Shown: positions 1 through 14,091, counted from the stretch's first letter. The stretch: DNA of 32,000 bases from Candidatus Saccharimonas aalborgensis (GCF_000392435.1 NC_021219.1:840001-872000); one strand, 5' to 3'. The notes: generated by a model from the letters alone, not told the origin. Translations and numbers: made by a program.

Positions 1-332
1 TCGAGAAACGCTGAAAATGCCTGGCTGTCCTGCTGGCGGCTACCCCCTGAGAGTACGGGCACAAAGGATGCTTCTGGCAAGAGGTGCGCGGAGCGCGAGA
101 CCGCCTGCCAGTTTGAGTGGTTATCCTTGATGGGTACGTAGCGTTCATCGCTCAGGGTGATTGTCAGACTATGCTGATATGGCAGAAGTGCCCTAAAAAG
201 TGGTTCTATAGCCTGGCTCGCCGAACCACCCGGCAGCAGCAGAAGAACCTTATTGCCACTATCATGAGCCGCTCGAACTGCTCGCTCTATAGCATCAATG
301 AGTTGTTGGGTAACAGGAGTAAGCTGGGTCAT
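1..332 (-). CDS. pgl: 6-phosphogluconolactonase-like protein, N-terminal part (3' end runs off the window)
   Basis: Own minus-strand translation from ATG at 332: MTQLTPVTQQLIDAIERAVRAAHDSGNKVLLLLPGGSASQ...ITLSDERYVPIKDNHSNW. The GGS...DERxVP..SN pattern fits Pgl-type sugar-phosphate isomerase-like proteins. It is absent from the ORF track because there is no stop in the window. The ATG abuts the TAA (333-335) of the upstream gene. Confidence 0.5.
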   Translation of the reverse strand, partial: MTQLTPVTQQLIDAIERAVRAAHDSGNKVLLLLPGGSASQAIEPLFRALLPYQHSLTITLSDERYVPIKDNHSNWQAVSRSAHLLPEASFVPVLSGGSRQQDSQAFSAFL

Positions 333-968
333 TTAGTGGAGCACATCGATTACAAGTGGTGTGGTATTATCCCAGCTCGTATCGACATAGAGCAGCAATG
401 TGTCAGCTTTTTTTGGAACGGCAAAGCTGATCTGTCCCGTAGCTGTTGCTCCCGGTGCGAGGTCCTGGGCGGCGATGGGATTCTTAACATGCATTGAAGC
501 GTGGAGTGCCGAGTATTCTCCCTCGGGGGTTCGGACAAACAACTGGTTGACGGGAATAAACGGCTTCGCCGTAGAAGTACGATTGGTAATCGTAAAACTC
601 ATGATGAGCATTGTTTTGCCTTCTTCGACTCCGAAAGCGGGGTCTTCGGCACTATTTATGGTGACGTCCCTGACCGATGCCTCAAATGCACTGTTGAATG
701 TAGGGTCGAGAGTTTTTGTGACATGCGTCGTCGCGGCCGAAACGGCGACAGCTCGTAGTTTGCTCTCGTTTTGTTTGGTGACTTCTACCCAAAAAAGCGT
801 ATTGATGACCACTAGAGCGGCAATGCCAAGCACCAGTGTTCCCATAAGGAGACTATTCTCATCGGTAAAGCGACGAAAACGACCATATTCTTTTTTTAAT
901 TCGCCTACTTCATCCGCAATGAACTCAGCGGGGGTGGTGTGTTTTTTGTGAAATAGTTTACGCATCAC
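333..968 (-). CDS. membrane-anchored DUF4352-like beta-sandwich protein
   Basis: 211-aa ORF with one N-terminal TM (LLMGTLVLGIAALVVINTLFWV) and a C-terminal region resembling DUF4352 (MLIMSFTITNRTS...GQISFAVPK). AAGGAG SD lies upstream; the real start is probably ATG 965. It is a paralog of 3460-4008. Confidence 0.6.
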   Translation of the reverse strand: MMRKLFHKKHTTPAEFIADEVGELKKEYGRFRRFTDENSLLMGTLVLGIAALVVINTLFWVEVTKQNESKLRAVAVSAATTHVTKTLDPTFNSAFEASVRDVTINSAEDPAFGVEEGKTMLIMSFTITNRTSTAKPFIPVNQLFVRTPEGEYSALHASMHVKNPIAAQDLAPGATATGQISFAVPKKADTLLLYVDTSWDNTTPLVIDVLH

Positions 969-976
969 ATCTCCTT

Positions 977-3430
977 TTATGGTTTGGTTGCATCATAATA
1001 CCCCACACGGTACCCGAGTAAGAGGCTGCTAGCAGAATTGTTGATGGTGGCACTGCCGTGCGCGTGAGTAGTTGCTCCGCCGCTATCCTGATAACCTGGT
1101 ATGCTTGCGGTACCTCTAAGAATCGTATTGATACTGTGATTACATGTGGCAGAAGTGTTCTCAAGTGTAGAGGTGGAGCCAGATTTAATGCCTCCCTTGT
1201 GTGTTGGCCGGAAGCTTGTGATGTTGACAACCCAGGTAGTGTTCCAACCCCAACAGTTGCCAATGGTACTGTGTGCGGCGAGATCGGTCGGTCCATAGCA
1301 AGGCGTTAGTCCGCCGCAATACACTGGTGCGGGGTCACTTACGGTAAGGTTGGTGCTGTTTGATGTGGTACCACCAGCGTTTGAGCAGCTAAGTGAATAC
1401 ACGTAGGTGCCTGCCGGTGATACGGCGCCGGTAGACTGTGATCCGCTGGCTGCTTTGCTACCAGACCAGTTGCCACCAGCTGTGCAGCTGGTGGGGCTAT
1501 TGGCTACGCTCCACGATACCGTAGCACTTCCACCTGTTGTAATACTGGATGGCGAAACAGAGATACTTATAGCAGGAGGGGTTACGACTGTAACGGTTGC
1601 AGAACCACTCCCAGAGCCTGAGGAGTTTGTGCACGTTAGTGTGTAGGTATAGGTACCGGCAGTTCCAATTGCTCCCGTGCTTGCTGAGCCATTAGCGCTT
1701 TGGCTACCGCTCCAGGAACCGCTACTTGTACAACTAGTGGGTGCATTTGTGGCAGACCATGTGAGCGTGCTAGCTGCGCCCGTGGCAATTGTTGTTGGTG
1801 AGGCGGTAATCGATACTGCGGGGGGATTCGAGGAAGTGCCGTTACTTACTGTGACGCTTGTACTTGCGCTCCCCGTTCCTCCGTCATTATTACAATCAAG
1901 GGTGTAGTTGTAGGTGCGGATCGTACCGAGACCACCAGTACTTACTGAGCCGCTCGCTGCTTTTGCTCCCGACCAGTCACCACTCGCATTACAGCTCAGC
2001 GGCGTGTTGGTCGTCGACCAAGTGAGGTTGGATGAACCGCCTATCGTGACCGATATAGGGCTTGCTGATAAGTTGACAACGGGTTTTGGCGGCAATGAAA
2101 CAACCAGTGTTGTGCTTCGTTTTGCGCTTGTCCCTCCCTGGTTACTGCACTGAAGCTCGTATAGATAGTTGCCCGCCGAATTCATCGTCCCTGTATTAAG
2201 CGATCCACTCGCTGTTTTCGCGCCGCTCCAAGCGCCAGTTGCTGTACAACTCGTGGGATTATTGGTCGATGACCACGAGATGGTTGATGTCGCACGTGTA
2301 TAGATGGGAGAAGGGCTAACGGTGATCGAGACATCGGGGGGATTTGGGATTACCTGCAGCGCTGCGGTGTCAAAGGTTCCTCCGGCGGCATTGCTGCAGG
2401 TTAATGTAAATAGGTAGGTTTTTATTGTGCTCAGTCCTGCCATGACTTGTGATCCACTCGCTGCTTTTGCGCCTGACCAGTCACCGCTTGCAACACAACT
2501 GGTCGGAGCATTGCTTACAGACCACGAGAGTGTGGTACTAGCGCCAGGAACAATAGGCCCAGGTGGAGTGGCGGCGATTGTAACAATAGGAATATCTGCT
2601 GGCGGCGTACGCGCCTCGACGGTAGTTGTTGCTGAGCTGGAACCAGCTGCGTTTGAACACTTGAGCGTGTAGGTATAATTGCGTGTTTGAGTAAGTGAGC
2701 CTGTCGAGATACTACCGTCGCCACTTTTGGTACCACTCCAATCACCACTGGCTGTGCAGCTGGTGGGGCTACTGGTCGTTGACCAAATAATTTGCGTCGA
2801 GCTGCCGGTATACACCCAGCTATCAGTAGGCGCTATCGTCACGATGGGCGCGCGAGCTGCATTTCCTGTGACGGTACGGGACATCGACCCTACACCGACA
2901 GTTGCAAACCCCGTCCCAGTATCGGTCTTACAGGTGAGCGTAAAGAGGTAGGTTTGGACGGTCGTCAGCGCTGGAGTGTCTTCTTCGCCAGAAGCAGCCC
3001 GGGCTCCCGACCAATCGTCGCTGGCGATACATTCCTTAGGATTATTGGTAACGCTCCACTTTAGCCTACTTTTTCCACCAGTTACCACTGACGCGGGATC
3101 GGCAGTAAGAGTGACGACTGGCGGATTAGTGCCCGATGTCCCACCCTTTCCCTGCTCTACATTTCCACCTGGATTTGCTGCATCGCTTTTTTTGGCTTCT
3201 TCTTGAAGTGCCTCTTGGTCATTTGCGGTGAGACCATGGTCTTTACTAAACTCCTTGTTGGTACTGAGATAACTAAATATAGCAAACGAAACCATACTAA
3301 TAATCATTATTGCTGAGGCAACAGCAATCAGGAGCTTCACTGCCTTCGGGCTGAGCTTCGGCAGACGGAACCTTGGCGGTTTGGAATCAAGTGGTGTCTT
3401 GATCTTAGCAACAAATGGATCCAGTGGCAC
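977..3430 (-). CDS. large surface protein: N-terminal TM anchor, 7 tandem ~85-aa Ig-like Cys-pair repeats, C-terminal cytochrome b5-like domain
   Basis: 817-aa ORF with a GTG start preceded by AAAGGGGA. TM at aa 33-54. Repeats span aa 105-702, each with the pattern WS..N.P.SC.A.G.WSG.K..SG...TG......Y.Y.L.C.N..G. The last 115 aa read YGPTDLAAHSTIGNCWGWNTTWVVNITSFRPTHKGG...THAHGS...LLLGYRVGYY, resembling bacterial Cyt-b5 domains (Y..e.a.H....CW....g.V.d.T.F...HPGG...H.....IG). Confidence 0.75.
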   Translation of the reverse strand: MPLDPFVAKIKTPLDSKPPRFRLPKLSPKAVKLLIAVASAIMIISMVSFAIFSYLSTNKEFSKDHGLTANDQEALQEEAKKSDAANPGGNVEQGKGGTSGTNPPVVTLTADPASVVTGGKSRLKWSVTNNPKECIASDDWSGARAASGEEDTPALTTVQTYLFTLTCKTDTGTGFATVGVGSMSRTVTGNAARAPIVTIAPTDSWVYTGSSTQIIWSTTSSPTSCTASGDWSGTKSGDGSISTGSLTQTRNYTYTLKCSNAAGSSSATTTVEARTPPADIPIVTIAATPPGPIVPGASTTLSWSVSNAPTSCVASGDWSGAKAASGSQVMAGLSTIKTYLFTLTCSNAAGGTFDTAALQVIPNPPDVSITVSPSPIYTRATSTISWSSTNNPTSCTATGAWSGAKTASGSLNTGTMNSAGNYLYELQCSNQGGTSAKRSTTLVVSLPPKPVVNLSASPISVTIGGSSNLTWSTTNTPLSCNASGDWSGAKAASGSVSTGGLGTIRTYNYTLDCNNDGGTGSASTSVTVSNGTSSNPPAVSITASPTTIATGAASTLTWSATNAPTSCTSSGSWSGSQSANGSASTGAIGTAGTYTYTLTCTNSSGSGSGSATVTVVTPPAISISVSPSSITTGGSATVSWSVANSPTSCTAGGNWSGSKAASGSQSTGAVSPAGTYVYSLSCSNAGGTTSNSTNLTVSDPAPVYCGGLTPCYGPTDLAAHSTIGNCWGWNTTWVVNITSFRPTHKGGIKSGSTSTLENTSATCNHSINTILRGTASIPGYQDSGGATTHAHGSATINNSASSLLLGYRVGYYDATKP

Positions 3431-3459
3431 TAGTATGATTCCCCTTTAGCTTATTAGTA

Positions 3460-4008
3460 TCAGTGTAACAAGAATTTCATTGCTCCGCCACTCCAATCTG
3501 ACTCGATGTAAAGCCAGAAGGGTATGGTATCAGACACGAGATAACTGAGCTGGCCGTTGATTCGTTCCCCTGGAAGCAACGTGCCTGCTCGGAGTGGGGT
3601 ATCAAGAACGGAGGGGGTAACAAAGGCAACTGTCCCATCGGCAGACTTCAGATAGGTATCATTTGTCGGGGTGATTGTGATAGGGGTAGCGCCTGTATTG
3701 AGGATCAAAAGATCGATAACCTCGAAATGTTTACCCGTCGGTGCGGCGTAGGGGGCTTTGCCTTGGGTTTGGGTGACCTTAGTCACAGTGATCTCTACCA
3801 CCCCACTTCGCACCGGTGAGCCAAGTGTTAACCCGTGAAAACTAGGCCCGGCAATTGTTGGGTGTGTGATTCGATAACTAACACTTAGTACTGTAAAAGA
3901 AGTAATGCACAAGAGAAGAGAGATGACAAAAAACACCTGAGAGAATCGAGAGAGTCCAGTAGTATGCCGACGCGAGTGGTTATGGTTTTTTTGCATCGTA
4001 GTATCCAA
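3460..4008 (-). CDS. membrane-anchored DUF4352-like protein (paralog of 333-968)
   Basis: 182-aa ORF with an N-terminal TM (FFVISLLLCITSFTVLSV) and a beta-rich C-terminus (HFEVIDLLILNTGATPITITP...GQLSYLV). It overlaps the upstream gene by 29 nt (17 nt if the start is ATG 3996). Confidence 0.6.
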   Translation of the reverse strand: MDTTMQKNHNHSRRHTTGLSRFSQVFFVISLLLCITSFTVLSVSYRITHPTIAGPSFHGLTLGSPVRSGVVEITVTKVTQTQGKAPYAAPTGKHFEVIDLLILNTGATPITITPTNDTYLKSADGTVAFVTPSVLDTPLRAGTLLPGERINGQLSYLVSDTIPFWLYIESDWSGGAMKFLLH

Positions 4009-4735
4009 TAAAGAATGATGTCATATTGCGTTCAGCGTTTGATTTACTGGCGTTGCTATGGTTTCTTGTCTGGCCTTCGGCACCGACACTACCCCCTAGG
4101 GCATTTGCAAGGTTCGTACCGCATACACCACCTACTTCTATGCTTGAGATGCCACTCTTAGCACGATGAAATGCCGCATCAAATCCAGAAATATTGATGA
4201 CGCGATTACCGTTATATCCCCAACAGTTGCCGCTGGAATTGTGTGCAGCAACCTCGCGCGGTCCGTAGCAGCTGCTTGCCCCGTTGCAGTAGGTAACGGT
4301 TGGAGTACCAGGCGATGATGGGGCTGTGGGCGTTGTGGGTGGAGAAACAGCACCAGTTTTAACTGTTACGGTGACAGTTTGTTTGGCCTCTCCTGCTGCA
4401 TTTTTGCAGATAAGAGCATATGTGAAGATACCTTCTTTTGCGAGCCGACCCGTGCTTTGGCTGCCAAAAGCTGTCTTTTGGCCCTCCCATGATCCTTCCC
4501 CACGGCAACTATCGACGGTACCCTCGACAGACCACGTCAGACTACTAAACGAACCAGTCGCCACTTGTTGAGGTTGTGCCGAAAAGGTAATAACTGGTAT
4601 CGCCAAAGAAGCTTGCTGCGTTGCGCTGAGCTCCCTACCACTCTTCGATGGAGCGAAGATACCAGCGATAGCGATGCCGTTCATCCCGACGAGAGTGATA
4701 ATCATACTGACGGCAACAAGTTTCTTTAGCCACAT
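3980..4735 (-). CDS. surface protein: signal/TM anchor, one Ig-like Cys-pair repeat, P/T linker, C-terminal cytochrome b5-like domain
   Basis: 251-aa ORF with AGGAGG SD 8 nt upstream of ATG 4735. The C-terminus is YGPREVAAHNSSGNCWGYNGNRVINISGFDAAFHRAKSG...VCGTNLANALGG...RNHSNAS...FFIGYYDAKKP. It aligns along its length with the C-terminus of the 817-aa protein, including 4 Cys and 2 His. Confidence 0.7.
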   Translation of the reverse strand: MWLKKLVAVSMIITLVGMNGIAIAGIFAPSKSGRELSATQQASLAIPVITFSAQPQQVATGSFSSLTWSVEGTVDSCRGEGSWEGQKTAFGSQSTGRLAKEGIFTYALICKNAAGEAKQTVTVTVKTGAVSPPTTPTAPSSPGTPTVTYCNGASSCYGPREVAAHNSSGNCWGYNGNRVINISGFDAAFHRAKSGISSIEVGGVCGTNLANALGGSVGAEGQTRNHSNASKSNAERNMTSFFIGYYDAKKP

Positions 4736-4746
4736 ACATCTACCTC

Positions 4747-6150
4747 CTATGACATTCCAAATTCTTCGCTATGAATACTTGTGGCAGGAACACCACGTGC
4801 TCTCAGCTGCTTCTTGAGAGATTGCATCATGGGAGGTGGTCCACAGATGTAGAAGTCCTTTCCCTCCAATCCCCCACTGTTCTCGGCAATAAAATCAACG
4901 CTGAGATAGCTCGGTTGCTTATCGCCAATAAAGGGAATAATACGCAAATTGTTCGGTGCGCCAACGGCTTGCTCGGAGAGCATATCCCAGTTGATAAGCT
5001 CGGATTCGGTTTTGACCGAATAGTATAGGTCGGCATGTGCATTACTGCCCACGATATCCTTTGACATCGACAGAAAAGGCGTTATACCTATCCCGCCAGC
5101 AATCCAAATTTGCTGAGTGTTCTTGTAATTGACGTAACTGAAACGTCCGTAGGCGCCCTCGATATCGGCATGTGTCCCGGCTTTGAGGGCTGTCAGTTTG
5201 TTGGTATAATCCCCGAGACCTTTGATACTGATCTCGAGCGCACTATCTTTTGGATTTGAACTAATCGAAAATGGATGCCATTCCTTAGAGATTCCCGCAC
5301 CAGCTCCGATGAAGCGCATAAACACAAACTGACCGGGCTTGTAGGATATCGGTTGCCCGACGGGTTCAAGCTTGATTTGCACGACATTCCCAGCGACAAC
5401 AGTAACATCGCGGACGATATAGCGGTAGCGTCGGATGAGGATGCGTCCCAGTAGTGATTTGTAGACAAAAGCAGCTGTCCCCATAATGACGATCGCAAGC
5501 ATATACCAGCGCAAGCCAGGCAATTTCGCGACGTCACTGCTGATAAACAAAATATGCAGGGCGGAAATGGCAAACGCTACGCCCAGAAACTTATGAGTAA
5601 ATAGCCAGAATCTATACGGTAGTTTAATGAAAAATGTGATCAGCAGTAGGGCTACCATGCCCCAAAATGCGATGATGCCAAAAAAGATTGCCCATTGTTG
5701 CAGCACTGATTGGTGAAAAATATGATTGTCATCAAATAACGCTTGAAGTGGGAAAATACCGTTTGGTACAAGGAGAAGTGCTGCCTGCTTGATGTCGGTC
5801 GAAACAAATCGAAGCGCTAGCATGAGTGGATGAAATGACAGCATGATAAGGGCTAGACCGCCCAAGAGGTGATGTGCGATATATACTCGGTTGAGCCCAC
5901 CAAACAAATACTCGAGGAAACGCAACCTCGTTGCATAAAGAAGGTTAAGCGCGTACATGACGGTGCCGATAAGCCCTGTCACTTGCCCTAGCGCTAGCAT
6001 CACTTGCTCGGGTCGCTTGATATAACTCAGCGGATGGGCGTTGTGCCACAGAACAACGGGAATGATGCAGAGCAAAATAGTGATGCCCCAGCCCAAGAGG
6101 TACTCCCATCGAAAACTAATTATGACTGTTCGTTTGCCACTTGGTTGCAT
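4747..6150 (-). CDS. ferric reductase / NADPH oxidase (NOX/FRE) family transmembrane flavocytochrome
   Basis: 467-aa ORF with a 6-TM N-terminal half. Two His pairs are spaced 13 residues apart (HHLLGGLALIMLSFH and HKFLGVAFAISALH), the bis-heme motif of this family. The C-terminal half has HPFSISS (FAD), GGIGITPF (NAD(P)H) and CGPPPM. Confidence 0.85.
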   Translation of the reverse strand: MQPSGKRTVIISFRWEYLLGWGITILLCIIPVVLWHNAHPLSYIKRPEQVMLALGQVTGLIGTVMYALNLLYATRLRFLEYLFGGLNRVYIAHHLLGGLALIMLSFHPLMLALRFVSTDIKQAALLLVPNGIFPLQALFDDNHIFHQSVLQQWAIFFGIIAFWGMVALLLITFFIKLPYRFWLFTHKFLGVAFAISALHILFISSDVAKLPGLRWYMLAIVIMGTAAFVYKSLLGRILIRRYRYIVRDVTVVAGNVVQIKLEPVGQPISYKPGQFVFMRFIGAGAGISKEWHPFSISSNPKDSALEISIKGLGDYTNKLTALKAGTHADIEGAYGRFSYVNYKNTQQIWIAGGIGITPFLSMSKDIVGSNAHADLYYSVKTESELINWDMLSEQAVGAPNNLRIIPFIGDKQPSYLSVDFIAENSGGLEGKDFYICGPPPMMQSLKKQLRARGVPATSIHSEEFGMS

Positions 6151-6168
6151 AAGCGTCTTTCATAGAAA

Positions 6169-6177
6169 AGTATAGCA
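6169..6177 (-). promoter_or_regulatory. extended -10 box TGCTATACT upstream of the NOX-like gene
   Basis: The minus strand reads TGCTATACT 18 nt upstream of ATG 6150. The same nonamer or a near copy precedes the MFS, gltX, DUF3048 and pyrH genes. Confidence 0.4.
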
Positions 6178-6221
6178 TAGCGTCTGTCATCTGGTGAAGA
6201 AGTTGCGGAAATTGCCTCAGG

Positions 6222-7406
6222 CTAACCATCCATGGTCTTTTTGATAAGCTGCATACGCTTCAATCTGGCTATCGCAATGAGCATAAATGGCCATGTCAGC
6301 ACTATCATCCAGACCCCCTGCCCTACTGCACCGATGATACCAATCTGCTGTGCTATGCCCGCAAACAGAAGTGTTAGCCACACCTCGTGGATGAGTTTGA
6401 AATTGTTAGTGACCGATAGGAGTGTGGCCTTGTAACGACTGGAACCAAATAATTCTAACAAATAGTGCTGATACATAATACTTTGGTATCGCCACATTGC
6501 CATATTGATAACGTGTGCCGCTATCGCTAGCGGCAACGACTTGAAGAAGCCAATTGAAGTCATCATGAGGATATTCATTATGATATCGAGAGAGGCGTAC
6601 TGCTGAAATGTAAGGCGTCGGAGATGGTGGACAATGTAGCCCAAGGCGGCTCCTATGATACTCGGCGCGGCGTAGAGAAGTCCCATATATTGCGGGTTGA
6701 GACCAAGTGCAACGAAACTTAGGTTGTATAAATCAACCGGACTAGTGGCGAAGGCCATTACGAGTCCCGCAATACTAAAGGACCAGACCGTACGTCGAGT
6801 AACAACTTGGCGAATTGCCCGCAAAAACGAAGTGTGCTGAATGCTGTCTTCATGCGTAATGGGCGGCTCGGTAAAAAGCGACGCAATCGCGAATAAAACG
6901 CCGTATGCAATCACGCCTGCTATAAATGGCAAACGTTTGTCAACTGGATACAGCAGCGGAATAAGTGCAATAATTCCTGCGTTGACGATAAGACTAAGTG
7001 ACTATGCCCGTGCTGCAATCTTTGCATAATCACTAGCGTTGCTGAGTACAACGAGACTATCATGTACCAGTGCATCAACAGCGCCACTCATAAACGAGTA
7101 GCCAATTGCAGTGATGACTGACGCCAGCAAAATACCAGTGAAGTTTGGTAGGAATATGTAGCAGAGTGTCCCAATAAGCGCAAGCAGCGCACCGACACGT
7201 GCACTGCGTTTTCGGCCGTATATATCCGCTCAATAGCCTGTCATTGTCTCAAACAAAATGCTTGCTACGCTTCCGGCAGCGGCCGTAACGCCTATTTCTG
7301 AGATACTGAGGCCGATTCCCTGGCTTGCATAAATGGTGATGAGGGGTAGAAAGATACGCTTTGTAAATACCTTATAGACGCCAAATAGTCGAACATTACG
7401 GAGCAT
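6222..7406 (-). pseudogene. MFS transporter gene interrupted by two in-frame stop codons
   Basis: ORFs 6222-6932 and 7230-7472 share one frame. My translation of the gap is continuous MFS sequence (ADIYGRKRSARVGALLALIGT...SNASDYAKIAARA) bounded by TGA at 7230-7232 and TAG at 7002-7004. Motif A is G-Y-stop-A-D-I-Y-G-R-K-R. The full length would be 394 aa from ATG 7406. Confidence 0.7.
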
Positions 7407-7614
7407 CTTTTGCGAGAGGTTGAGTGGCACTATGTCAGTATAGCAGGTACTATTTGGCGCTCCCAACAACAAGGTTCACTCATGTTATATGAAAGAATTA
7501 TTGTCGAATTGAATTATGAAATGTCTAAGCCAGTCCACGCGTTGACAAAGAAAAACAGAGACGACACGGGGTTGGGCTGTGCTGTCTCTGTTATATCAGG
7601 CTTTATCTACGGTA

Positions 7615-8052
7615 CTAATACCAGTCCCACAACGCTGATCCAGGTATCGAGTCGGCCGTATAACCCCAATAAGTGTGTATGTTATTGTGCCATGCGTATG
7701 CCGAAAAGCTGCCCCATGTTTTAGGACCAACAATTCCATCAACTGGCATTTGATAGCTATGCCAACTGTTTACCCACCTCTGGAACACCTTAACGTTATT
7801 GTAGGTATTTGTGCCAAATTTTCCATCAACAACTAGGTAGTAACCACCACTGTATCCATTGCCACTCCAAGTGCCGGCTTCTGATTGCATTGCATTTAAC
7901 ATTGTTTGGATATATCGAACACAATCACCGCTTGAGCTTTTCGAGAAAGTCATTGTATTGCACGCCGATGACGCATGTGCGGTAGTTGGTGCGTATGTCA
8001 CAAACACTAAAGCTAAAGACAACGCAGCTGCTACAAGTTTAGTTCTAAGCAT
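7615..8052 (-). CDS. secreted peptidoglycan-binding (PG_binding_1-like) domain protein
   Basis: 145-aa ORF with a signal peptide (...APTTAHA/SS). CVRYIQTMLN...DGKFGTNTYNNVKVFQ...DGIVGPKTW matches the PG-binding repeat pattern. TATAAT (8089-8094) and AAAGGA SD lie upstream. Confidence 0.75.
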   Translation of the reverse strand: MLRTKLVAAALSLALVFVTYAPTTAHASSACNTMTFSKSSSGDCVRYIQTMLNAMQSEAGTWSGNGYSGGYYLVVDGKFGTNTYNNVKVFQRWVNSWHSYQMPVDGIVGPKTWGSFSAYAWHNNIHTYWGYTADSIPGSALWDWY

Positions 8053-8147
8053 ATTTTTCCTTTAATACCCTAAGTTAATATAAGGATCATTATACTAAAC
8101 TTTTGATTAATGTGAAGTTTTCGATAAATGTCTAGATGGAATATTCT

Positions 8148-8284
8148 CCGGTTGACCTTATGGGAATACCTAGTTTATGCCAAGCCGAGCCTTCAAGTGA
8201 CGGGGCAATAGCGAACTGCAAGACGGGTTCGATTCCTCCGAGTAGAACTCGGCGCAAACACCCCTGTAAAAGTAGAGGTGTTTG
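8148..8284 (+). repeat. degenerate copy of the tRNA-Glu 3'-end unit: att-like core, ~85-bp conserved block, hairpin
   Basis: 8148-8167 aligns, degenerately, with TGGTGATCCCACCGGGAAT. 8203-8253 matches 13492-13542 at 48/51 nt by hand alignment. Hairpin caaacacc/ggtgtttg at 8255-8284. Confidence 0.6.
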
Positions 8285-8292
8285 TGTGGTGG

Positions 8293-8836
8293 GCCTTTCG
8301 AGTGTGAAACGTACCTTACGCCGTCAAGGTCTCACCAAACCAGAGAGCAAATGGAAACGCTTCCGTCCACACATTGAGCGACCATAGGTTAATGTACCGG
8401 GTACGCTCGTCGAAGGGGATACAATTCACTTCGTACGCTCCGACGGTACGCGTTTGTATGTGCTGTCATTCATTGAACTATTACTTACGAGCTACTTACG
8501 CTGAGTACTCACTTCGCCGCAACCAGCAAGCTGGCCACCAGTTTGTGGTACGAGCACAGGATTTTCTAGGCATTAACTTCTCTATGTTCCAGACAGACAA
8601 TGGGGGTGAATTTGGGACGTAACTCCATGACATACTTTAGTCGAAGGGCATTCCCCTTTGACACACGAGGCTCCATCACCCGAACGACAATACTTACATT
8701 TGAACGGTTAGCCGAATTATCCAGCAAGAATGCCGATCTTTACTTGTTAACGAACAGCGAGTACCAGACAAGGTTGGCTGGTACTCGGCTCTATTATAAC
8801 TGGCATCGCCAAATAGCCATCGAGAGCAGGAGATAG
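8293..8836 (+). pseudogene. decayed rve-type DDE transposase (IS481/IS3-like) remnant, N-terminus missing, multiple frames
   Basis: Fragments lie in three frames: LRRQGLTKPESKWKRFRPHIERP; FQTDNGGEFG (DDE core motif TDNG.EF); YYNWHRQ (compare YN..RPH). No intact ORF remains. Confidence 0.6.
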
Positions 8837-9025
8837 ATTGTCCAGGGCTAGGTTGTAACAGAGGTTCGAACCGATACTTAGATAACGTCAAACAAAAGCA
8901 ATACCGTATGCATAGTAGGGCGTAGCAAAGCGCAGTTAATTATGTGATACCGGCACTCTTGTTGTAGTCACGATTAGATAGTATAGTTAGATTTGTAAGT
9001 TCACTTTAACTAACAGGAGGGTATT

Positions 9026-10732
9026 ATGGCAATAGAACAAAAATATTTAGACCAAGCGGCAAACGACCTATTCTTCGCATATGATGATTCGTTTGGATAT
9101 GCAGGCTTACCCCGGCCTACCACGACATATGACAGTGTTTTGGCCAGAGCCGCAAAGGAAGGTTCCACGAGCCAAAGCAAGGCCGTGTCGCTCATGCAAG
9201 AATATGCAGCATTGTTACAAAAGGAGGCAAATGATCCTAACACGCCGACAGGACCAACATCGTATGAGCTAAAAGAAGTAGACATATACGGGGTAAAGTA
9301 TTATGTGCTGAAGGACGATCCAAATCCTCATGTGGCATTTCGTGTCGACATCCCCGGCAAATTGATCATAGGAAATGCAATCCCTGGCTCGGGAAGCGAT
9401 GATGGTTATGCTCTTAACAATAATGCCGACCTTATTAACAACTATTTAAATAATAGTGCTATAGATGAACGAGATAAAAAGGTTGTTGCGCAGCTCATGG
9501 GCATTAGGCGGCCCACAGAAGCAGACATATTCAGGGCTGAAACTATCAGGAGTTATGGGGGTCTTACGCCAGGGGCCGCTGAGGAATTTGATCAAAATTT
9601 CTTCAACCCTGCCGCTGGGATTACGGAGGGAGTGCAAGAGAGACATGACGAAAAATTCGCATGGTGGAAGGAGGCGACAAATATGGAAAATGCGCAGTCC
9701 GAAGAAGAACTGCCGCTATACGCTCAATACGATCTGAAAATATTTGACCTCAACAATAAAATTGAGCTTTGGAAAGATCGTCCGGACGCGTTCCCTATCG
9801 AGGAAATAAATGCAGACCTGCAAGAGATGAAAAGGCTACAAGGCCTCTACGCTGCTACCCCAAAGCCAGATGTATTTAAGGATGAGGCGTTTAATTATGC
9901 TGCGACAGCAGGCTCCTCCTCAGGCGGCTCATCACCCGCGCCCACAGAAACAAATCCGAATACAAATACTACAGAGAATCCAAAAGATAGCACCGCTGAC
10001 GGCAATGTGCAAACTAACATCTCAAATAACTCCGTCACCGAAGATGATACCTTGACGGGGGGTGTAAAACCAGATAACCAAACGGGCTCAACATCAGACT
10101 CAGAGTCAGGTCCAGAAAAATCTGCCACACCCGCAACGCCTGCTACACCTGCGGTGACGTCGTCTAACTCATCAGGCAACTCTAATTCTAACAGCTCAGC
10201 CGATGAAAGTACTCCTTCTCGCCGCGACAAGAGTACTTCGAATAGTCACAAAGGTGCAGCTGCTGCGAGTAACACAGATGTTGCTGAGGATAGCAACGCG
10301 AGTATCGCTGGCGGTACCTACACCGTGAAAAAAGGCGACACTCTGAGCGAGATCGCACAGGCACACGGCATGGACTACCATACGCTGGCGAAGATAAATG
10401 GTATCGCCAATCCAAATTTGATTCACTCAGGTCAAATCATACGCATCGGCGATGGAGGGAGTGTTCCTAAGGAAGACCTATTGACCAGTACTCCAAGCGC
10501 GGGTACCTACACCGTGAAAAAAGGCGACACTCTGAGCGAGATCGCACAGGCACACGGCATGGACTACCATACGCTGGCGAAGATAAATGGTATCGCCGAC
10601 TCTCACTGGATCCATCCCGGACAACAGATAAGATTTAGTGATAGCGCAAGTGGTGGTCTAGGGGGCAGTACGGGAGACAATACCCTGCCATCCGGTGAGA
10701 TTGGTATGGTTCAGTACACAGATAGACAATAG
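9026..10732 (+). CDS. protein with unknown ~300-aa N-terminal domain, S/T/N/P-rich linker and two C-terminal LysM domains; no recognizable signal peptide
   Basis: 568-aa ORF with AGGAGG SD 7 nt upstream. There are two copies of YTVKKGDTLSEIAQAHGMDYHTLAKINGIA...G (LysM pattern). The N-terminus MAIEQKYLDQAANDLFFAYDD has no hydrophobic stretch. Confidence 0.85.
   Translation: MAIEQKYLDQAANDLFFAYDDSFGYAGLPRPTTTYDSVLARAAKEGSTSQSKAVSLMQEYAALLQKEANDPNTPTGPTSYELKEVDIYGVKYYVLKDDPNPHVAFRVDIPGKLIIGNAIPGSGSDDGYALNNNADLINNYLNNSAIDERDKKVVAQLMGIRRPTEADIFRAETIRSYGGLTPGAAEEFDQNFFNPAAGITEGVQERHDEKFAWWKEATNMENAQSEEELPLYAQYDLKIFDLNNKIELWKDRPDAFPIEEINADLQEMKRLQGLYAATPKPDVFKDEAFNYAATAGSSSGGSSPAPTETNPNTNTTENPKDSTADGNVQTNISNNSVTEDDTLTGGVKPDNQTGSTSDSESGPEKSATPATPATPAVTSSNSSGNSNSNSSADESTPSRRDKSTSNSHKGAAAASNTDVAEDSNASIAGGTYTVKKGDTLSEIAQAHGMDYHTLAKINGIANPNLIHSGQIIRIGDGGSVPKEDLLTSTPSAGTYTVKKGDTLSEIAQAHGMDYHTLAKINGIADSHWIHPGQQIRFSDSASGGLGGSTGDNTLPSGEIGMVQYTDRQ
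10313..10597 (+). repeat. two 96-bp copies identical at nucleotide level (10313-10408 and 10502-10597) encoding the LysM cores
   Basis: Direct reading shows both copies as ggtacctacaccgtgaaaaaaggcgacactctgagcgagatcgcacaggcacacggcatggactaccatacgctggcgaagataaatggtatcgcc. Confidence 0.9.
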
Positions 10733-10757
10733 CCCTTTACTTGCTTGGTGATCGGCT

Positions 10758-10794
10758 ACATACCCCAGCAGCACATATGTGAGCTGGGGTATGT
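10758..10794. terminator. bidirectional stem-loop between the convergent LysM and ABC genes
   Basis: Perfect 12-bp stem acataccccagc (10758-10769) / gctggggtatgt (10783-10794), followed by tatttc on the plus strand. Confidence 0.6.
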
Positions 10795-10830
10795 TATTTC
10801 ACAGTCTGGTCCCGGACCGATAAGGGTATT

Positions 10831-13047
10831 CTACTCTTCGCGTCGTTCGTGGTGGAATTCTACAACCACTTCGTCTGACATACTTAGGTCCGTCTCAGAA
10901 GAGCGCCCTGTAGTCTGATCGCTACTATGTGGCACAAAGAATACATCCCTTGAAGGCATCTCGACGTCTGACGAACCTATCTCTTGAAATACCTGTATGG
11001 TATTTGTCTGTCGTGCTTCAGGAACCGCCATATCCTGAATACCTATTTGGGTGTCAACTGCATTTGGAAGAACATAGCTCTTTTCATCAACGATTTCCTT
11101 CTCTGCTTGCTGAATAGCAATTCCTTCCAGTAGGGTGAGATAGTAATCTAGGCCGCCTAGCTCATTGACATTGGTTAGCGTGCCATTGTCTAATACATAA
11201 ATTGTATCCATGAGTGACAAGAGGGCTTTTCGGTGGGTTACCATGAGAACGGTTTTGTTGGTCACGATTCTCGATAAAGCGTCGCGAATATAGTTCTCAC
11301 TTTTGACGTCGAGGGCGGCGGTCGGCTCATCTAAACAGAGGATAGGAGCATTTTTAATCAGTGCACGTGCTATTGCCACCCGCTGTCGCTGACCACCGCT
11401 CAAAGAAGATCCGTTCTCGCCAACGAGCGTATTGATCCCAAGAGGTGTCTTAACAAGAAACTCGAGCACGTTAGACACTTCTACAGCGTTCATCACCTCT
11501 TCTGAGGTAATCCGCCTGTAGACATCGCCGTCATAAATATTTTCTGCGATGGTTCCACTAAAGAGCTGCGGGGTCTGGCTCACCCAAGAGATCTGACGTC
11601 TTAATTCTTGCAAAGAGAAACTCTGTGTGTCGTACCCGCCCAATAAAATACGTCCCTGGTCTGGCTCAATAAATAAAGGTAGCAGCTTTAAGACTGTGCT
11701 TTTTCCACCGCCACTTGGTCCAATAATTCCTACCTTTTCGCCCTCTCTGATTGTGATATTTAAATTCTTAAATATATCTTTCCCACCATATGAGTACGAG
11801 ACATTGTCAAACTGGATAACCGGGCGGATGCCCGCAGGAATATGGTCACCCTTTCTTAGAAATTCAACACCTTCATGGTCGCTTAGCACCTCATAGATAC
11901 GACTAACGTCAATCTCCTTTTGATACCGTGTGGTTATCTTTTTGACTAAGTTCTCAACTGGTCCTAGTAGGTACCCCATATACGTCATAAAGATGAAAAG
12001 TTCGCCAAATGTCATTTTCCCCTGCATGGCCTCGGTGCCACCAAAATACATCACTGTCGACGTTGCGAGGATCACAAGCAATGAGTTTGAATTCTCCAAA
12101 AGATTACCCCAAATAAGATTCTTACGACTTGCTTCGTAGCTGGCTCGCCAGTAGTTATCAACCTGCAATAGTTGCTTGTCTTCCAACGTAAAGGTCTGAA
12201 CCGTCTCGGCATTGTCAACGGCTTCATTGATTGAACTTGCTGTCTTGCTGTTAAGTTCAGTTAACTGTCTCGAGTATTTACCAAGATGCGGACCAATAAG
12301 TTTCATCGTAACGTATAGCATGGGCATGAGAACAACTGACACAATGGTCAGCCGTGGATTAAACGAAAACATTATGGCTAAGACGCCCATTATCATAATG
12401 ATCGAGCCGATGATAGATGAGGTCGTGTCAAGAACTAGGTCGGATAAACTATTTGTGACGACGTTTTGACGATAGACGTAGTCACCTTTTGCCAGGCGTT
12501 GCTGGTGAAAAAGTGGTAAATGCAATATGTGTAAAAAAGACTCGGTTTTAATTGAACGATTCAATGAAAAAGCAACTTTTTGAAGATGCATCGCACTAAT
12601 CCAGTTAAAGGCAGCACCGAAAAGGAATATCAGGATGGACATTATCGCCGTGTATGCAATCAGTGCGGGCTCACCAGTATAAGCTGTCAGCGGCCAAGGT
12701 GCAGGGATCGACCCAAATGCTGAATCGGCCATGATCTTCATAGGCCACGGTTTGAGCAGTGATATACCCGCGCTGATCGTTGTGACTATAACTACAGTTA
12801 CTACGCCTTTTGTTGCCTTTTTTTGGTATTTTTTTAGCCAAGTTTTGAAGTCAGTTTGTACTGTTCTCTTGACATTTACCTGCAGCCATGCATCAACTGC
12901 TGGATTGACCAATTCTGCGGGCCAGCCAATATCAATCAATACATCAGCCACCATATTTGGTTTCACACCACTTTTGACGGCCATGTCAACAGCTTGGAGT
13001 AACTGCGACATCACCTCATATTCTTTGTCCGCACCCCTTTTTTTCAT
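10831..13047 (-). CDS. ABC exporter, fused TMD-NBD (type I exporter fold), with extra ~90-aa N-terminal domain and ~120-aa acidic C-terminal tail
   Basis: 738-aa ORF with Walker A GPSGGGKST, signature LSGGQRQR and Walker B ILCLDEPTAALD. Six TM segments precede the NBD. TATAAT (13056-13061) lies 8 nt before ATG 13047. Confidence 0.9.
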   Translation of the reverse strand: MKKRGADKEYEVMSQLLQAVDMAVKSGVKPNMVADVLIDIGWPAELVNPAVDAWLQVNVKRTVQTDFKTWLKKYQKKATKGVVTVVIVTTISAGISLLKPWPMKIMADSAFGSIPAPWPLTAYTGEPALIAYTAIMSILIFLFGAAFNWISAMHLQKVAFSLNRSIKTESFLHILHLPLFHQQRLAKGDYVYRQNVVTNSLSDLVLDTTSSIIGSIIMIMGVLAIMFSFNPRLTIVSVVLMPMLYVTMKLIGPHLGKYSRQLTELNSKTASSINEAVDNAETVQTFTLEDKQLLQVDNYWRASYEASRKNLIWGNLLENSNSLLVILATSTVMYFGGTEAMQGKMTFGELFIFMTYMGYLLGPVENLVKKITTRYQKEIDVSRIYEVLSDHEGVEFLRKGDHIPAGIRPVIQFDNVSYSYGGKDIFKNLNITIREGEKVGIIGPSGGGKSTVLKLLPLFIEPDQGRILLGGYDTQSFSLQELRRQISWVSQTPQLFSGTIAENIYDGDVYRRITSEEVMNAVEVSNVLEFLVKTPLGINTLVGENGSSLSGGQRQRVAIARALIKNAPILCLDEPTAALDVKSENYIRDALSRIVTNKTVLMVTHRKALLSLMDTIYVLDNGTLTNVNELGGLDYYLTLLEGIAIQQAEKEIVDEKSYVLPNAVDTQIGIQDMAVPEARQTNTIQVFQEIGSSDVEMPSRDVFFVPHSSDQTTGRSSETDLSMSDEVVVEFHHERREE

Positions 13048-13273
13048 TACTGCTTATTATATCACTCTACTCCGCAAGAGGTATAGTCAAAATTTAGCCT
13101 ATCTACAACTCATATTGCCTGATGGTTTAGCCCTAATTTGACATAACAGATCGTTTGTATCCGAGCGGGCGCTTAGATATGAGTGCTAAGTGCATATCTG
13201 TAAGGACCACAACATAATAAGATTAGACTTACTGATACAGAAAAAGACCTTTCTGTGAAAGAAAAGTCTCTTA

Positions 13274-13602
13274 TGGTGATCCCACCGGGAATATCTAAAG
13301 ATGTAAACTATCCTCACTCGGAAAAATAAGCAAGCTGATTTTTCTCTCATTTCGTCGGTTTATCGAACCCTCCAGGTTCGGTTTCCTGACGGAAACCAAC
13401 CAGAGAAAAAACACCACCGTAGGGTGATGTTTTTTCTCTGGTGATCCCACCGGGAATACTAGAGTATATTGCGCCGTCGCAGCAAGCTGCCGGGCAATAG
13501 CGAACCGCGAGACGGGTTTGATTCCTCCGAGTAGAACTCGGCAAAGAAAAATCGCCTACCCATGCGGGGTAAGCGATTTTTCTTGGTGATCCCACCGGGA
13601 AT
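13274..13602 (-). repeat. three exact direct copies of the 19-nt tRNA-Glu 3' end (att-like), spaced 165 and 145 bp
   Basis: TGGTGATCCCACCGGGAAT occurs at 13274-13292, 13439-13457 and 13584-13602 (the last inside the tRNA gene). On the plus strand each copy is immediately preceded by a different stem-loop. Confidence 0.85.
13546..13582 (-). terminator. stem-loop directly downstream of tRNA-Glu
   Basis: gaaaaatcgcc...ggcgatttttc-type hairpin with inner taccc/gggta pairing. The T-run after the stem on the minus strand is short. Confidence 0.5.
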
Positions 13603-13658
13603 CGAACCCGGATTGCCAGGATGAGAACCTGGTGTCCTAACCGTTAGACGATGGGACC
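13584..13658 (-). tRNA. tRNA-Glu (anticodon CTC), CCA encoded
   Basis: Hand-folded 75 nt: GGTCCCA TC GTCT AACGGTTA GGAC A CCAGG TTCTCAT CCTGG CAAT CCGGG TTCGATT CCCGG TGGGATC A CCA. All four stems pair, with one G-U in the acceptor. Confidence 0.9.
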
Positions 13659-13695
13659 AATGCTGCTATATCGTAGCAAAAACAGAGGTGTTTGT

Positions 13696-14091
13696 CTAGC
13701 CATTTGCGGGGGTCGCGGGCTCAAGTGATGTAATCACTTCGAGGAGCTTGCGCGGGGTAATTTCTGCCTTGATAAGATATCCATCGACATCGTGTTCCAT
13801 CGCGGTACGGGATTCCTCATCTTGGTCAAAGTTGGTCATAACGAGGACATGCGTACCAGGAATAAGGTCTTTGCCTTCCCCCCTCAAAGCACGCAAAATA
13901 TCACTTCCGCGCATTTCTGGTAGCATAATATCGAGAAGAATGAGGTCGTAGCGGCGGTTGCGTGCCGCGACAAGCCCGTCGTTGCCATCAACCATCCAGT
14001 CGACAGTATAGCCGGCATGTTGGAGGCTACGAACATACATTTCGCCGATAAATCTGTCGTCCTCGATGCACAAAATAGTCTTGATAGCCAC
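13696..14091 (-). CDS. single-domain response regulator (receiver only, CheY-like)
   Basis: 131-aa ORF: ILCIEDD...LILLDIMLP (phospho-Asp)...VLVMTNF...YLIKA. No output domain. Confidence 0.85.
   Translation of the reverse strand: MAIKTILCIEDDRFIGEMYVRSLQHAGYTVDWMVDGNDGLVAARNRRYDLILLDIMLPEMRGSDILRALRGEGKDLIPGTHVLVMTNFDQDEESRTAMEHDVDGYLIKAEITPRKLLEVITSLEPATPANG

Follow-up and report, generated by a model that had tools for sequence, protein, structure and literature searches.

Downstream of the tRNA-Glu gene of Candidatus Saccharimonas aalborgensis, the end of the tRNA recurs several times beside a stretch of accessory genes, which raises the question of how these copies arose and whether the DNA between them was once mobile. 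We addressed this question in a stretch of 32,000 nucleotides (NC_021219.1, positions 840001 to 872000), hereafter called the window, in whose coordinates all positions are given unless a contig is named. Candidatus S. aalborgensis is its source: the 1.0-Mb genome CP065015.1 is 99.9% identical to it over 16 kb, and near-identical contigs bear the same species name. An earlier note on this DNA, made from the sequence alone, had taken the copies for classical attachment-site (att) scars of elements integrating into tRNA genes, left by serial integration and then deletion. Our analysis retains the att-type repeats at an integration hotspot and supports a tandem, decayed array, but the recombinases found are serine-type rather than the classical tyrosine-type, and simple repeated integration at the tRNA cannot explain the order of the units. 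We consider it probable that integrative elements accumulated in tandem at a tRNA-Glu hotspot here and have since decayed, giving an array of the type formed by cis-mobilizable elements (CIMEs) or pseudo-staphylococcal cassette chromosomes (pseudo-SCC). The observations behind this reading are the repeats themselves, a cassette polymorphism with exact junctions, elements encoding large serine recombinases (LSRs) at the same tRNA end in relatives, LSR relics in the window, and an empty site.

On the plus strand, the last 19 nt of tRNA-Glu read TGGTGATCCCACCGGGAAT (the 19-mer). As the earlier note had stated, this sequence occurs exactly three times, at 13274, 13439 and 13584; the window holds no further match with up to 3 mismatches, 0 being expected from 100 shuffles. 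Each copy spans the tRNA from the middle of the T-loop to the CCA end. The 3′ end of tRNA-Leu, the window's other tRNA, served as a control and is present once only. Direct repeats of the tRNA 3′ end, three exact and one degenerate, flank inserted DNA here as they do in genomic islands. In the order of the tRNA (minus) strand, a response regulator gene and tRNA-Glu are followed by a unit U1, copy 2, a unit U2, copy 3, a larger segment E3, copy 4 and a 2-kb segment; beyond the latter lie a ferric-reductase-like gene, several DUF4352 and surface proteins, and a 6PGL-6PGD gene. The parts closest to the tRNA, with the distant copies of two of them, are as follows:

13584-13658, minus: tRNA-Glu(CTC), by ARAGORN and Rfam
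13698-13670: promoter-like site TAGACA-17-TACGAT at tRNA-Glu
13584-13602 (plus-strand coordinates): repeat copy 1, the last 19 nt of tRNA-Glu
13544-13583: term1, left end of U1, an 18-bp hairpin flanked by an A-run and a T-run in the shape of a bidirectional terminator (-26.3 kcal/mol, z -7.1)
13458-13543, minus: block A of U1, with hairpin P1, invariant core GGAATCAAACCCGTCTCGCGGTTCGCTATTGCC, the 13-bp stem P3, then ..CTCTAGT
13527-13541: P1, a small hairpin in block A
13439-13457, minus: copy 2 of the 19-mer, exact match
13293-13438, minus: U2, with term2, a hairpin and a spacer ending ..CTTTAGAT; gene-less, 165 bp when counted with its 19-mer
13399-13438: term2 (-29.8 kcal/mol), homologous to the native tRNA-Glu terminator of a relative (L036)
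13380-13397: second hairpin of U2, GGTTTCC..GGAAACC
13274-13292, minus: copy 3 of the 19-mer, exact match
8168-8253, minus: block A′, second copy of block A, its 51-nt core 48/51 identical to 13492-13542
8148-8167, minus: degenerate copy 4 of the 19-mer, beside block A′

On the tRNA strand, a hairpin and a T-run directly follow each of the three exact copies. The claim that every copy adjoins a different stem-loop was confirmed by folding: the three hairpins are unlike in sequence, and term1, term2 and the corresponding term3 after copy 3 have folding energies of -26.3, -29.8 and -13.0 kcal/mol (z = -7.1, -8.7 and -3.2 against shuffles).

Copy 4, which the earlier note had placed at about 8148-8167, can be upheld, albeit less by its own sequence, in which 13/20 aligned columns agree with the window's own tRNA end, than by its position beside block A′, which supports it. 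It agrees better (16/20) with the tRNA-Glu end of another Saccharibacteria lineage (L020), and this foreign acceptor type suggests that it may have been imported along with foreign DNA. The homology described after the copies, about 90 bp with a 48/51 core and then a hairpin, is there. Positions 8203-8253 and 13492-13542 are identical at 48/51 nt, and 8194-8253 is 88% identical to 13483-13542 over 60 nt; the alignment extends over about 105 nt when copy 4 is counted, the block homology itself over about 86 nt, and the hairpin lies at 8255-8290. Part of this hairpin (8268-8285) also shares an 18-nt match (16/18) with the tRNA-Glu promoter region (13678-13695), reading ACAAACACCTCT.YTTTT. The repeat regions, in which the earlier note had thought unrecognised small RNAs possible, yielded no RNA family and no additional tRNA: ARAGORN detects no further tRNA or tmRNA in the window, Rfam at gathering score matches only the two real tRNAs, and at E≤10 it returns only chance-level matches besides the real tRNA on 13100-13720 and none on 8050-8420.

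Strains of the same species differ in what follows the tRNA. Among contigs with the same or nearly the same response regulator, from strains 97 to 99.9% identical to the window, four states were seen:

tRNA, E3: L050
tRNA, U1, E3: L041, L042, L066
tRNA, U2, other flank: L059, L061, L065, L067 (L065 runs on into a VIT1 gene)
tRNA, U1, U2, E3: the window, L001, L005, L022, L034

All junctions of these states fall exactly at the 19-mer. An empty site is given by a sister metagenome-assembled genome (MAG) that is 97% identical (JBAQIS01; L015), in which copy 3 is joined via 14 nt to the ferric-reductase promoter region, and from which 6180-13273 of the window (7,094 bp) is absent. The comparison of empty and occupied sites in relatives that the earlier note had proposed was therefore possible, since L015 lacks 6180-13273 and cassettes have been lost or gained at 19-mers in other strains. 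It also revises the extent of the accessory segment, given before as about 5 kb (8148-13602): the strain-variable island is 6180-13273 (7.1 kb), within a wider variable region of 228-13583. A complete genome that is 99.8% identical (CP065017.1; L035) has a deletion of 228-13286, from inside copy 3 to the 6PGL-6PGD gene, which marks the region between tRNA-Glu and that gene as dispensable and variable. One further strain (L002 and L023) has the sequence type of another lineage in the T-arm and the acceptor 3′ strand of its tRNA, and other DNA in place of U1 and U2; together with copy 4, this replaced 3′ half indicates import from other Saccharibacteria. A scan of viral contigs with the alternative 3′ half gave 0 matches. 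Many metagenome contigs end inside or at the end of tRNA-Glu.

Two of these contigs show further changes. Through the 13-kb deletion, the 6PGL-6PGD fusion of L035 has lost its N-terminal 6-phosphogluconolactonase part and measures 431 aa instead of 521 aa, and in L041 (10879-13589) the ABC exporter of E3 is truncated, with its fragment fused to an MMPL gene.

While the window itself encodes no recombinase, relatives carry intact ones at the same tRNA end. In contig WBZP01001323 (L031; about 91% identical in core genes), a 4.5-kb element sits exactly between the tRNA CCA and term1. It encodes a 529-aa LSR with Resolvase (1e-26), Recombinase (3e-8) and weak Zn_ribbon_recom matches and the motif KRVSTEEQ. 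At its junctions, GGGATCACCA meets TATAGG.. and ..CAACCACGTTCACCA meets AGAAAAATCG, so that only TCACCA (6 nt) is repeated. At the same tRNA-Glu end, a second contig of this lineage (L033) encodes a 572-aa LSR. It shares only 23% identity with the 529-aa protein; nevertheless, both open reading frames (ORFs) cross the junction and end in MVIPPGIEPGLPG before the stop, their last 13 codons being tRNA-Glu antisense and the stop codon the antisense of TCA in the anticodon loop. Intact LSRs at this site were found in L031, L033 and L052 to L058. ORF positions, in contig coordinates, are:

L031, 10468-12057: 529-aa LSR
L033, 1399-3117: 572-aa LSR
L052 and L054, 10001-11719: LSR
L051, 10001-11734: LSR

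The 572-aa family (PF00239, with or without PF07508; motif IRVSTTKQ) comprises more than 100 clusters at 75 to 100% identity, nearly all of exactly 572 aa, throughout Saccharibacteria including RAAC3_TM7_1. In 7/7 integrated loci examined, its gene overlaps a tRNA-Glu (CTC or TTC). L051 holds a 98%-identical LSR in a non-tRNA context: only a 26-nt mimic of the tRNA end is present, after which the C-terminus diverges to ..LVIPPEIEPMLILVIFLL and a stop (577 aa). This arrangement is what an element-borne attP would look like, and would yield long tRNA-end repeats on integration. Because the L051 tail ends in LVIPPEIEPMLILVIFLL and the integrated ones in MVIPPGIEPGLPG, integration would rewrite the C-terminus of the recombinase.

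The cargo beside these LSRs includes FtsK/SpoIIIE, DUF3768, DUF7249, restriction and OLD-nuclease genes and a diversity-generating retroelement. Such stretches next to tRNA-Glu LSRs are L054 5940-8872, L052 1-7333 and L051 1531-5514. The retroelement consists of RVT_1, bAvd and an N_methyl target protein; elsewhere in this cargo, an OLD-family nuclease accompanies a type IIG restriction enzyme, and an ABC/FtsX pair accompanies FtsK/SpoIIIE. Beside the recombinase, DUF3768 and DUF7249 are found repeatedly.

We then asked what of such an element is visible in the window. The earlier note had stated that no tyrosine or serine integrase was left; there is indeed no recombinase gene, but the tail of an LSR and an LSR-type terminator remain. 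The tail occupies the left end of E3, at 13216-13273 on the plus strand, as the last ~19 codons upstream of the repeat. With seven repeat-encoded codons it reads ..IRLTDTEKDLSVKEKSLM followed by VIPPGI, that is, ~26 codons (13216-13293) running into copy 3, with stop codons upstream. The 13 nt after copy 3 (TAAGAGACTTTTC) are 12/13 identical to the LSR junction of L033, with the translation ..KEKSLMVIPPGI, and the relic aligns with both the 529-aa and the 572-aa tails. Since junction and tail alignment agree, E3 opens on the final codons of a serine recombinase that has been lost. The minus strand of the same relic is the terminator-like hairpin term3. At the other end of E3, the hairpin at 8255-8290 (plus) matches a tRNA terminator that the 572-aa LSR family carries within the 3′ part of its coding sequence (score 36, against a shuffle maximum of 25, n=500). 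The island consists of two recombinase-less segments, 13273-8148 (E3) and 8147-6180, and its far boundary also resembles an LSR element: in tRNA-strand reading, 6192-6208 ends ..CCGCAACTTCTTCACCA, and the far end of the 7.1-kb segment reads ..CAACTTCTTCACCA, both similar to the attR end of the L031 element (..CAACCACGTTCACCA).

The two small units have different histories. U1, the 145 bp between copies 1 and 2, consists of term1, block A and a 19-mer and is gene-less, as is U2. The two are unrelated in sequence, and U1, U2 and the start of E3 have only the 19-mer in common; simple tandem duplication is rejected on this ground. U2 is missing in L041, L042, L050 and L066, stands directly at the tRNA in L059, L061, L065 and L067, and carries a 64-nt internal deletion in L015. 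In relative L036, a homologue of term2 stands right behind the tRNA as its terminator, so the left part of U2 is native flank. Since U2 begins with a native-type tRNA terminator, a serial integration in which the newest element lies nearest the tRNA fails to account for the order of units, and no unique order of integration events emerged from the comparison. In L065 (~4030-4120, after the response regulator), U2 is followed by a 19-mer with one mismatch (GGGATTACCA); 75 nt further on, ..ATCGTTCACCA adjoining AAAATAG resembles the attR end of the L031 element, then comes the VIT1 gene, and the sequence appears as another small relic at the tRNA-Glu hotspot.

U1, by comparison, has relatives in other genera. 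Scanning a genome collection with the block A core gave 10 matches, 5 of them chance matches in unrelated phyla. The others revealed the same layout of tRNA-Glu, terminator, P1, block A and tRNA-end copy in other Saccharibacteria: a Saccharimonadaceae MAG whose tRNA-Glu is TTC (L017), a Saccharimonadales MAG (L020), a second S. aalborgensis MAG (L015/L019) and L016. A metagenome scan gave one true match (L010, from WBZP01001323) and one chance match in a GC-rich gene. The core GAATCRAACCCG(TC)TYGCGGTTCGCTATTGCC is invariant across the loci (GAATCRAACCCG..GCGGTTCGCTAT), while P1, P3 and the terminator vary by paired substitutions (for example GCAGC/GCTGC to GCGGC/GCCGC to GTTGT/ACAAC), with double changes in 4/23 predicted pairs in an alignment of only 9 sequences, several of them near-identical or degenerate. 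At the position equivalent to term1, L017, L019, L020 and L016 have other stems. The 19-mer behind block A follows the local tRNA acceptor, with GAGATCA at both places in L017 and one mismatch in L020. The block A core corresponds to inverted tRNA-Glu positions ~39-61 (CCTGGCAAT and CCGGGTTCGATTCC), interrupted by a conserved 14-nt insert; the local alignment of block A with antisense tRNA is significant (3/500 shuffles reach the score), that with sense tRNA is not (29/500). Judged from these alignments, U1 is a cross-genus conserved module with structure-preserving substitutions and not a random deletion scar. The earlier note had allowed that the repeats might prove to be a conserved structured RNA family unrelated to integration; U1 is indeed conserved together with its structure, but it matches no RNA family and is polymorphic within the species.

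In L016, a more distant Saccharibacteria MAG, the block A module (1-500) is inverted relative to the response-regulator gene and preceded by ..TCGACGTGGCTCACCA; the L016 stretch examined contains no tRNA-Glu. The motif GACGTGGCTC is common to L016 and L017, where it lies downstream of the second terminator.

How might such an array have come about? We propose that the 19-mers are reiterated attachment-site cores in a hypervariable hotspot directly downstream of tRNA-Glu(CTC). The related elements would be driven by LSRs whose genes converge on the tRNA and overlap its 3′ end, and because of this overlap the elements would bring their own copy of the tRNA end and a terminator for the tRNA. The array would be made of two mini-cassettes, U1 (145 bp) and U2 (165 bp), and the 7.1-kb island that keeps the last LSR codons. 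In this scenario, LSR-mediated integration created the 19-mer array, and the small units may be the remains of larger elements or, alternatively, native flank with a pseudo-site. Present-day gain and loss of units would proceed by recombination between 19-mers, which could be site-specific, or homologous or slippage-based with allelic exchange between strains. Circles formed on excision would join ..CTCTAGT, 19-mer and term1; ..TTTAGAT, 19-mer and term2; and the 6192 side, TCACCA/19-mer and TAAGAGAC. Consistent with the CIME type, U1, U2 and 8148-13273 have 19-mer copies on both sides and encode no recombinase.

Several points weigh against this proposal. No excision product or circular junction was observed, and the Pfam search of the window's ORFs gave no recombinase gene. 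Elements of serine recombinases have very short repeats (PMC5704250, section 2.1). The 19-bp repeats exceed the 2- to 12-bp cores typical of these enzymes, and the only LSR element with both ends available, that of L031, is flanked by just 6 nt. For the LSR element of L054, no tRNA-end repeat was found within 11.7 kb, and some 572-aa LSR copies may be fixed or domesticated. The empty site of L015 and the far junction in the window do not make a clean attB/attR pair. U2 opens with the native-type terminator, yet sits between U1 and E3. By nhmmer, block A occurs at this locus only and is absent from the LSR elements sampled. Finally, other genera also keep U1 beside their tRNA-Glu, its core unchanged and its hairpins altered in a compensatory manner, which suggests a function rather than a decaying scar.

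This last point leads to an alternative in which block A and its 19-mer are a functional host module, either a structured RNA on the tRNA strand with a tRNA-like end or a cis element of tRNA-Glu expression; the repeats would be kept by function and the island polymorphism would be incidental. The shared layout in L017, L020, L015/L019 and L016, the invariant core with compensatory changes, the 19-mer that carries the local acceptor variant in L017 and nearly so in L020, and the G-U pairs of P3, which favour the tRNA-orientation strand, all speak for it. However, Rfam gives no match either at gathering score or at E≤10, a promoter scan detects no sigma-70-like site within U1 or U2, and a strong terminator lies upstream of U1, whose single-sequence fold is no better than shuffles (z -0.5 on the minus and -1.9 on the plus strand). 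Moreover, U1 is missing from strains of the same species (L050, L059, L061, L065, L067) and from relative L036, the small alignment described above limits the covariation, and inverted-repeat sites for protein binding keep their symmetry by paired changes, too. We regard a host module as unlikely. The same palindromic mimicry of the tRNA-Glu 3′ half could also mean that block A with its 19-mer works as a conserved pseudo-attachment site, the region then being a cassette array operated by recombinases; we hold this to be quite unlikely, but if true it would be an integron-like gene-capture platform run by LSRs whose C-termini are rewritten on tRNA integration. The 51-nt block, for which the earlier note had suggested a search of phage sequences, gave 0 matches in viral contigs (IMG/VR), whether the 3′ part of block A or a degenerate block A core was used, and we have no evidence there that the units are phage attP regions.

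That repeats of at least 19 bp, starting in the T-loop and restoring the tRNA, are the signature of tyrosine integrases at tRNA 3′ ends (PMC5704250, section 2.1) opens another route: the copies could be scars of phages or integrative and conjugative elements (ICEs) with such integrases, and the serine recombinases would merely share the hotspot. Length and T-loop start of the repeat fit this textbook signature, and the LSR element of L031 itself makes a repeat of only 6 nt. Yet the ORF relic reading into copy 3 is the tail of an LSR, the 26-nt tRNA-end mimic in the 3′ end of a 572-aa LSR would itself make long repeats upon integration, and there is no Phage_integrase-type protein in the gene tables of the contigs looked up at the locus, nor in the Pfam-scanned ORFs of the window and L017, with L016 and L020 unscreened. 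Scars of tyrosine-integrase elements are, in our view, very unlikely. Another origin, in which the tRNA 3′ end was duplicated locally by slippage or unequal crossing-over and then diverged, would need no site-specific recombination at all. Slippage or homologous recombination readily removes units between 19-nt repeats that are 145 to 310 nt apart, and all smaller arrays could be deletion derivatives of a three-copy state; on the other hand, U1, U2 and the start of E3 share nothing but the 19-mer, the boundaries carry foreign sequences (the LSR tail, an LSR-type terminator, acceptor variants of other lineages), and intact elements occupy the same junction in relatives, all of which makes local duplication extremely improbable. 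Target-site duplication by an insertion sequence was also considered as the origin of the repeats and rejected, the 19-mers being tRNA-derived and not flanking the transposase remnant of E3.

The decayed array that we favour has counterparts among known systems. In Streptococcus, ICEs and integrative and mobilizable elements accrete in tandem with CIMEs, which are cis-mobilizable, recombinase-less elements retaining attL and attR, at tRNA-Lys, fda and other sites (PMC5704250, section 2.3; Pavlovic 2004 and Bellanger 2011 cited there). As in those arrays, the 3′ end of a conserved gene is reiterated, integrase-less decayed elements stand in tandem, strains vary in units, and intact elements occupy the same site in relatives. 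Unlike in those systems, which use tyrosine integrases, the recombinases at the tRNA-Glu site are LSRs, two gene-less units of 145 to 165 bp are present, one of them kept across genera, and no excision product was seen.

Composite SCC and pseudo-SCC islands of staphylococci, at the 3′ end of rlmH (orfX), are driven by the LSRs CcrAB and CcrC. There, too, an LSR targets the 3′ end of a conserved gene, which keeps its function after integration, repeats of about 15 to 20 bp accompany each unit, and cassettes may lack a recombinase. The present locus differs in that the target is a tRNA gene, the recombinase ORF reads into the tRNA antisense, and the host is a bacterium of the candidate phyla radiation with a ~1-Mb genome; judged by Pfam domains only, there is no relationship between these LSR families and Ccr. 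With tRNA-linked islands and prophages (P4-type, or pSAM2-type actinomycete ICEs), it shares a repeat from T-loop to CCA, a replacement 3′ end with terminator, accessory cargo and a lower GC content over parts, but no tyrosine integrase was found in the screened loci (gene tables, Pfam), the associated recombinases being serine-type. The likeness to integron arrays is an analogy only: a one-sided array of cassettes of very different size lies beside a fixed site and assorts between strains, each cassette ending in an imperfect palindromic element and a short conserved core. In contrast with integrons, no IntI/Phage_integrase-type match is present in the gene tables of the loci looked up or in Pfam scans of the window, attI/attC consensus sequences not having been searched for.

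While tRNA-end repeats bounding accessory DNA are ordinary, what is new here is the Saccharibacteria context, the convergence on one tRNA end of two unrelated serine recombinases whose C-termini read through the junction, the miniature cassettes, and the conserved tRNA-derived palindromic module. Serine recombinases that target and restore a tRNA 3′ end, with their own frame running into the tRNA, are unusual. Genetic work on Saccharibacteria, with their genomes of ~1 Mb, is only beginning to be feasible; a defined landing site downstream of tRNA-Glu, with content that varies between strains, lets one see where and how such reduced genomes gain accessory genes. The att sites of both recombinases can be read from natural junctions, making the enzymes candidate site-specific integration tools for the phylum, and the palindromic module may constitute a novel type of site, for recombination or for regulation.

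As for the cargo of the island itself, the order of E3 on the tRNA strand is term3, an ABC exporter, a LysM protein, the remnant of an rve-type transposase, the hairpin and block A′:

10831-13047, minus: ABC exporter, 738 aa, ABC_membrane and ABC_tran (Pfam)
9026-10732, plus: protein with two LysM domains, 568 aa (Pfam)
8374-8836, plus: frameshifted, 5′-truncated rve-type (DDE) transposase remnant, recognised by a homologue only
6180-8147: second island segment, with a PG_binding_1 (peptidoglycan-binding) protein at 7615-8052, minus, and a 236-aa ORF at 6222-6932, minus

When the island was compared by tblastx with LSR elements and distant loci, nothing matched beyond an ABC ATPase motif and the relics at the junctions, so the cargo is not common to the sampled LSR elements. 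The GC content is 43 to 46% in much of the island (~7000-9500 and ~11000-13500) as compared to ~50% in the flanks, and 46 to 50% in the LysM gene and the 3′ part of the ABC gene (~9000-11500).

The transposase remnant named in the earlier note holds up through its homologue, albeit without a direct Pfam match from either the ORFs or a stitched pseudo-protein: residues 34 to 81 of the ORF at 8374-8619 are 56% identical (48 residues) to a 297-aa protein with rve, rve_3 and HTH domains, which came from an exhaustive search. No intact rve (DDE) transposase is present besides this remnant. The LysM gene, in turn, contains a 151-nt direct repeat (10313-10463 and 10502-10652, 83% identical) that spans both LysM domains, and in strain L023 the gene is 63 codons shorter, consistent with the loss of one repeat unit.

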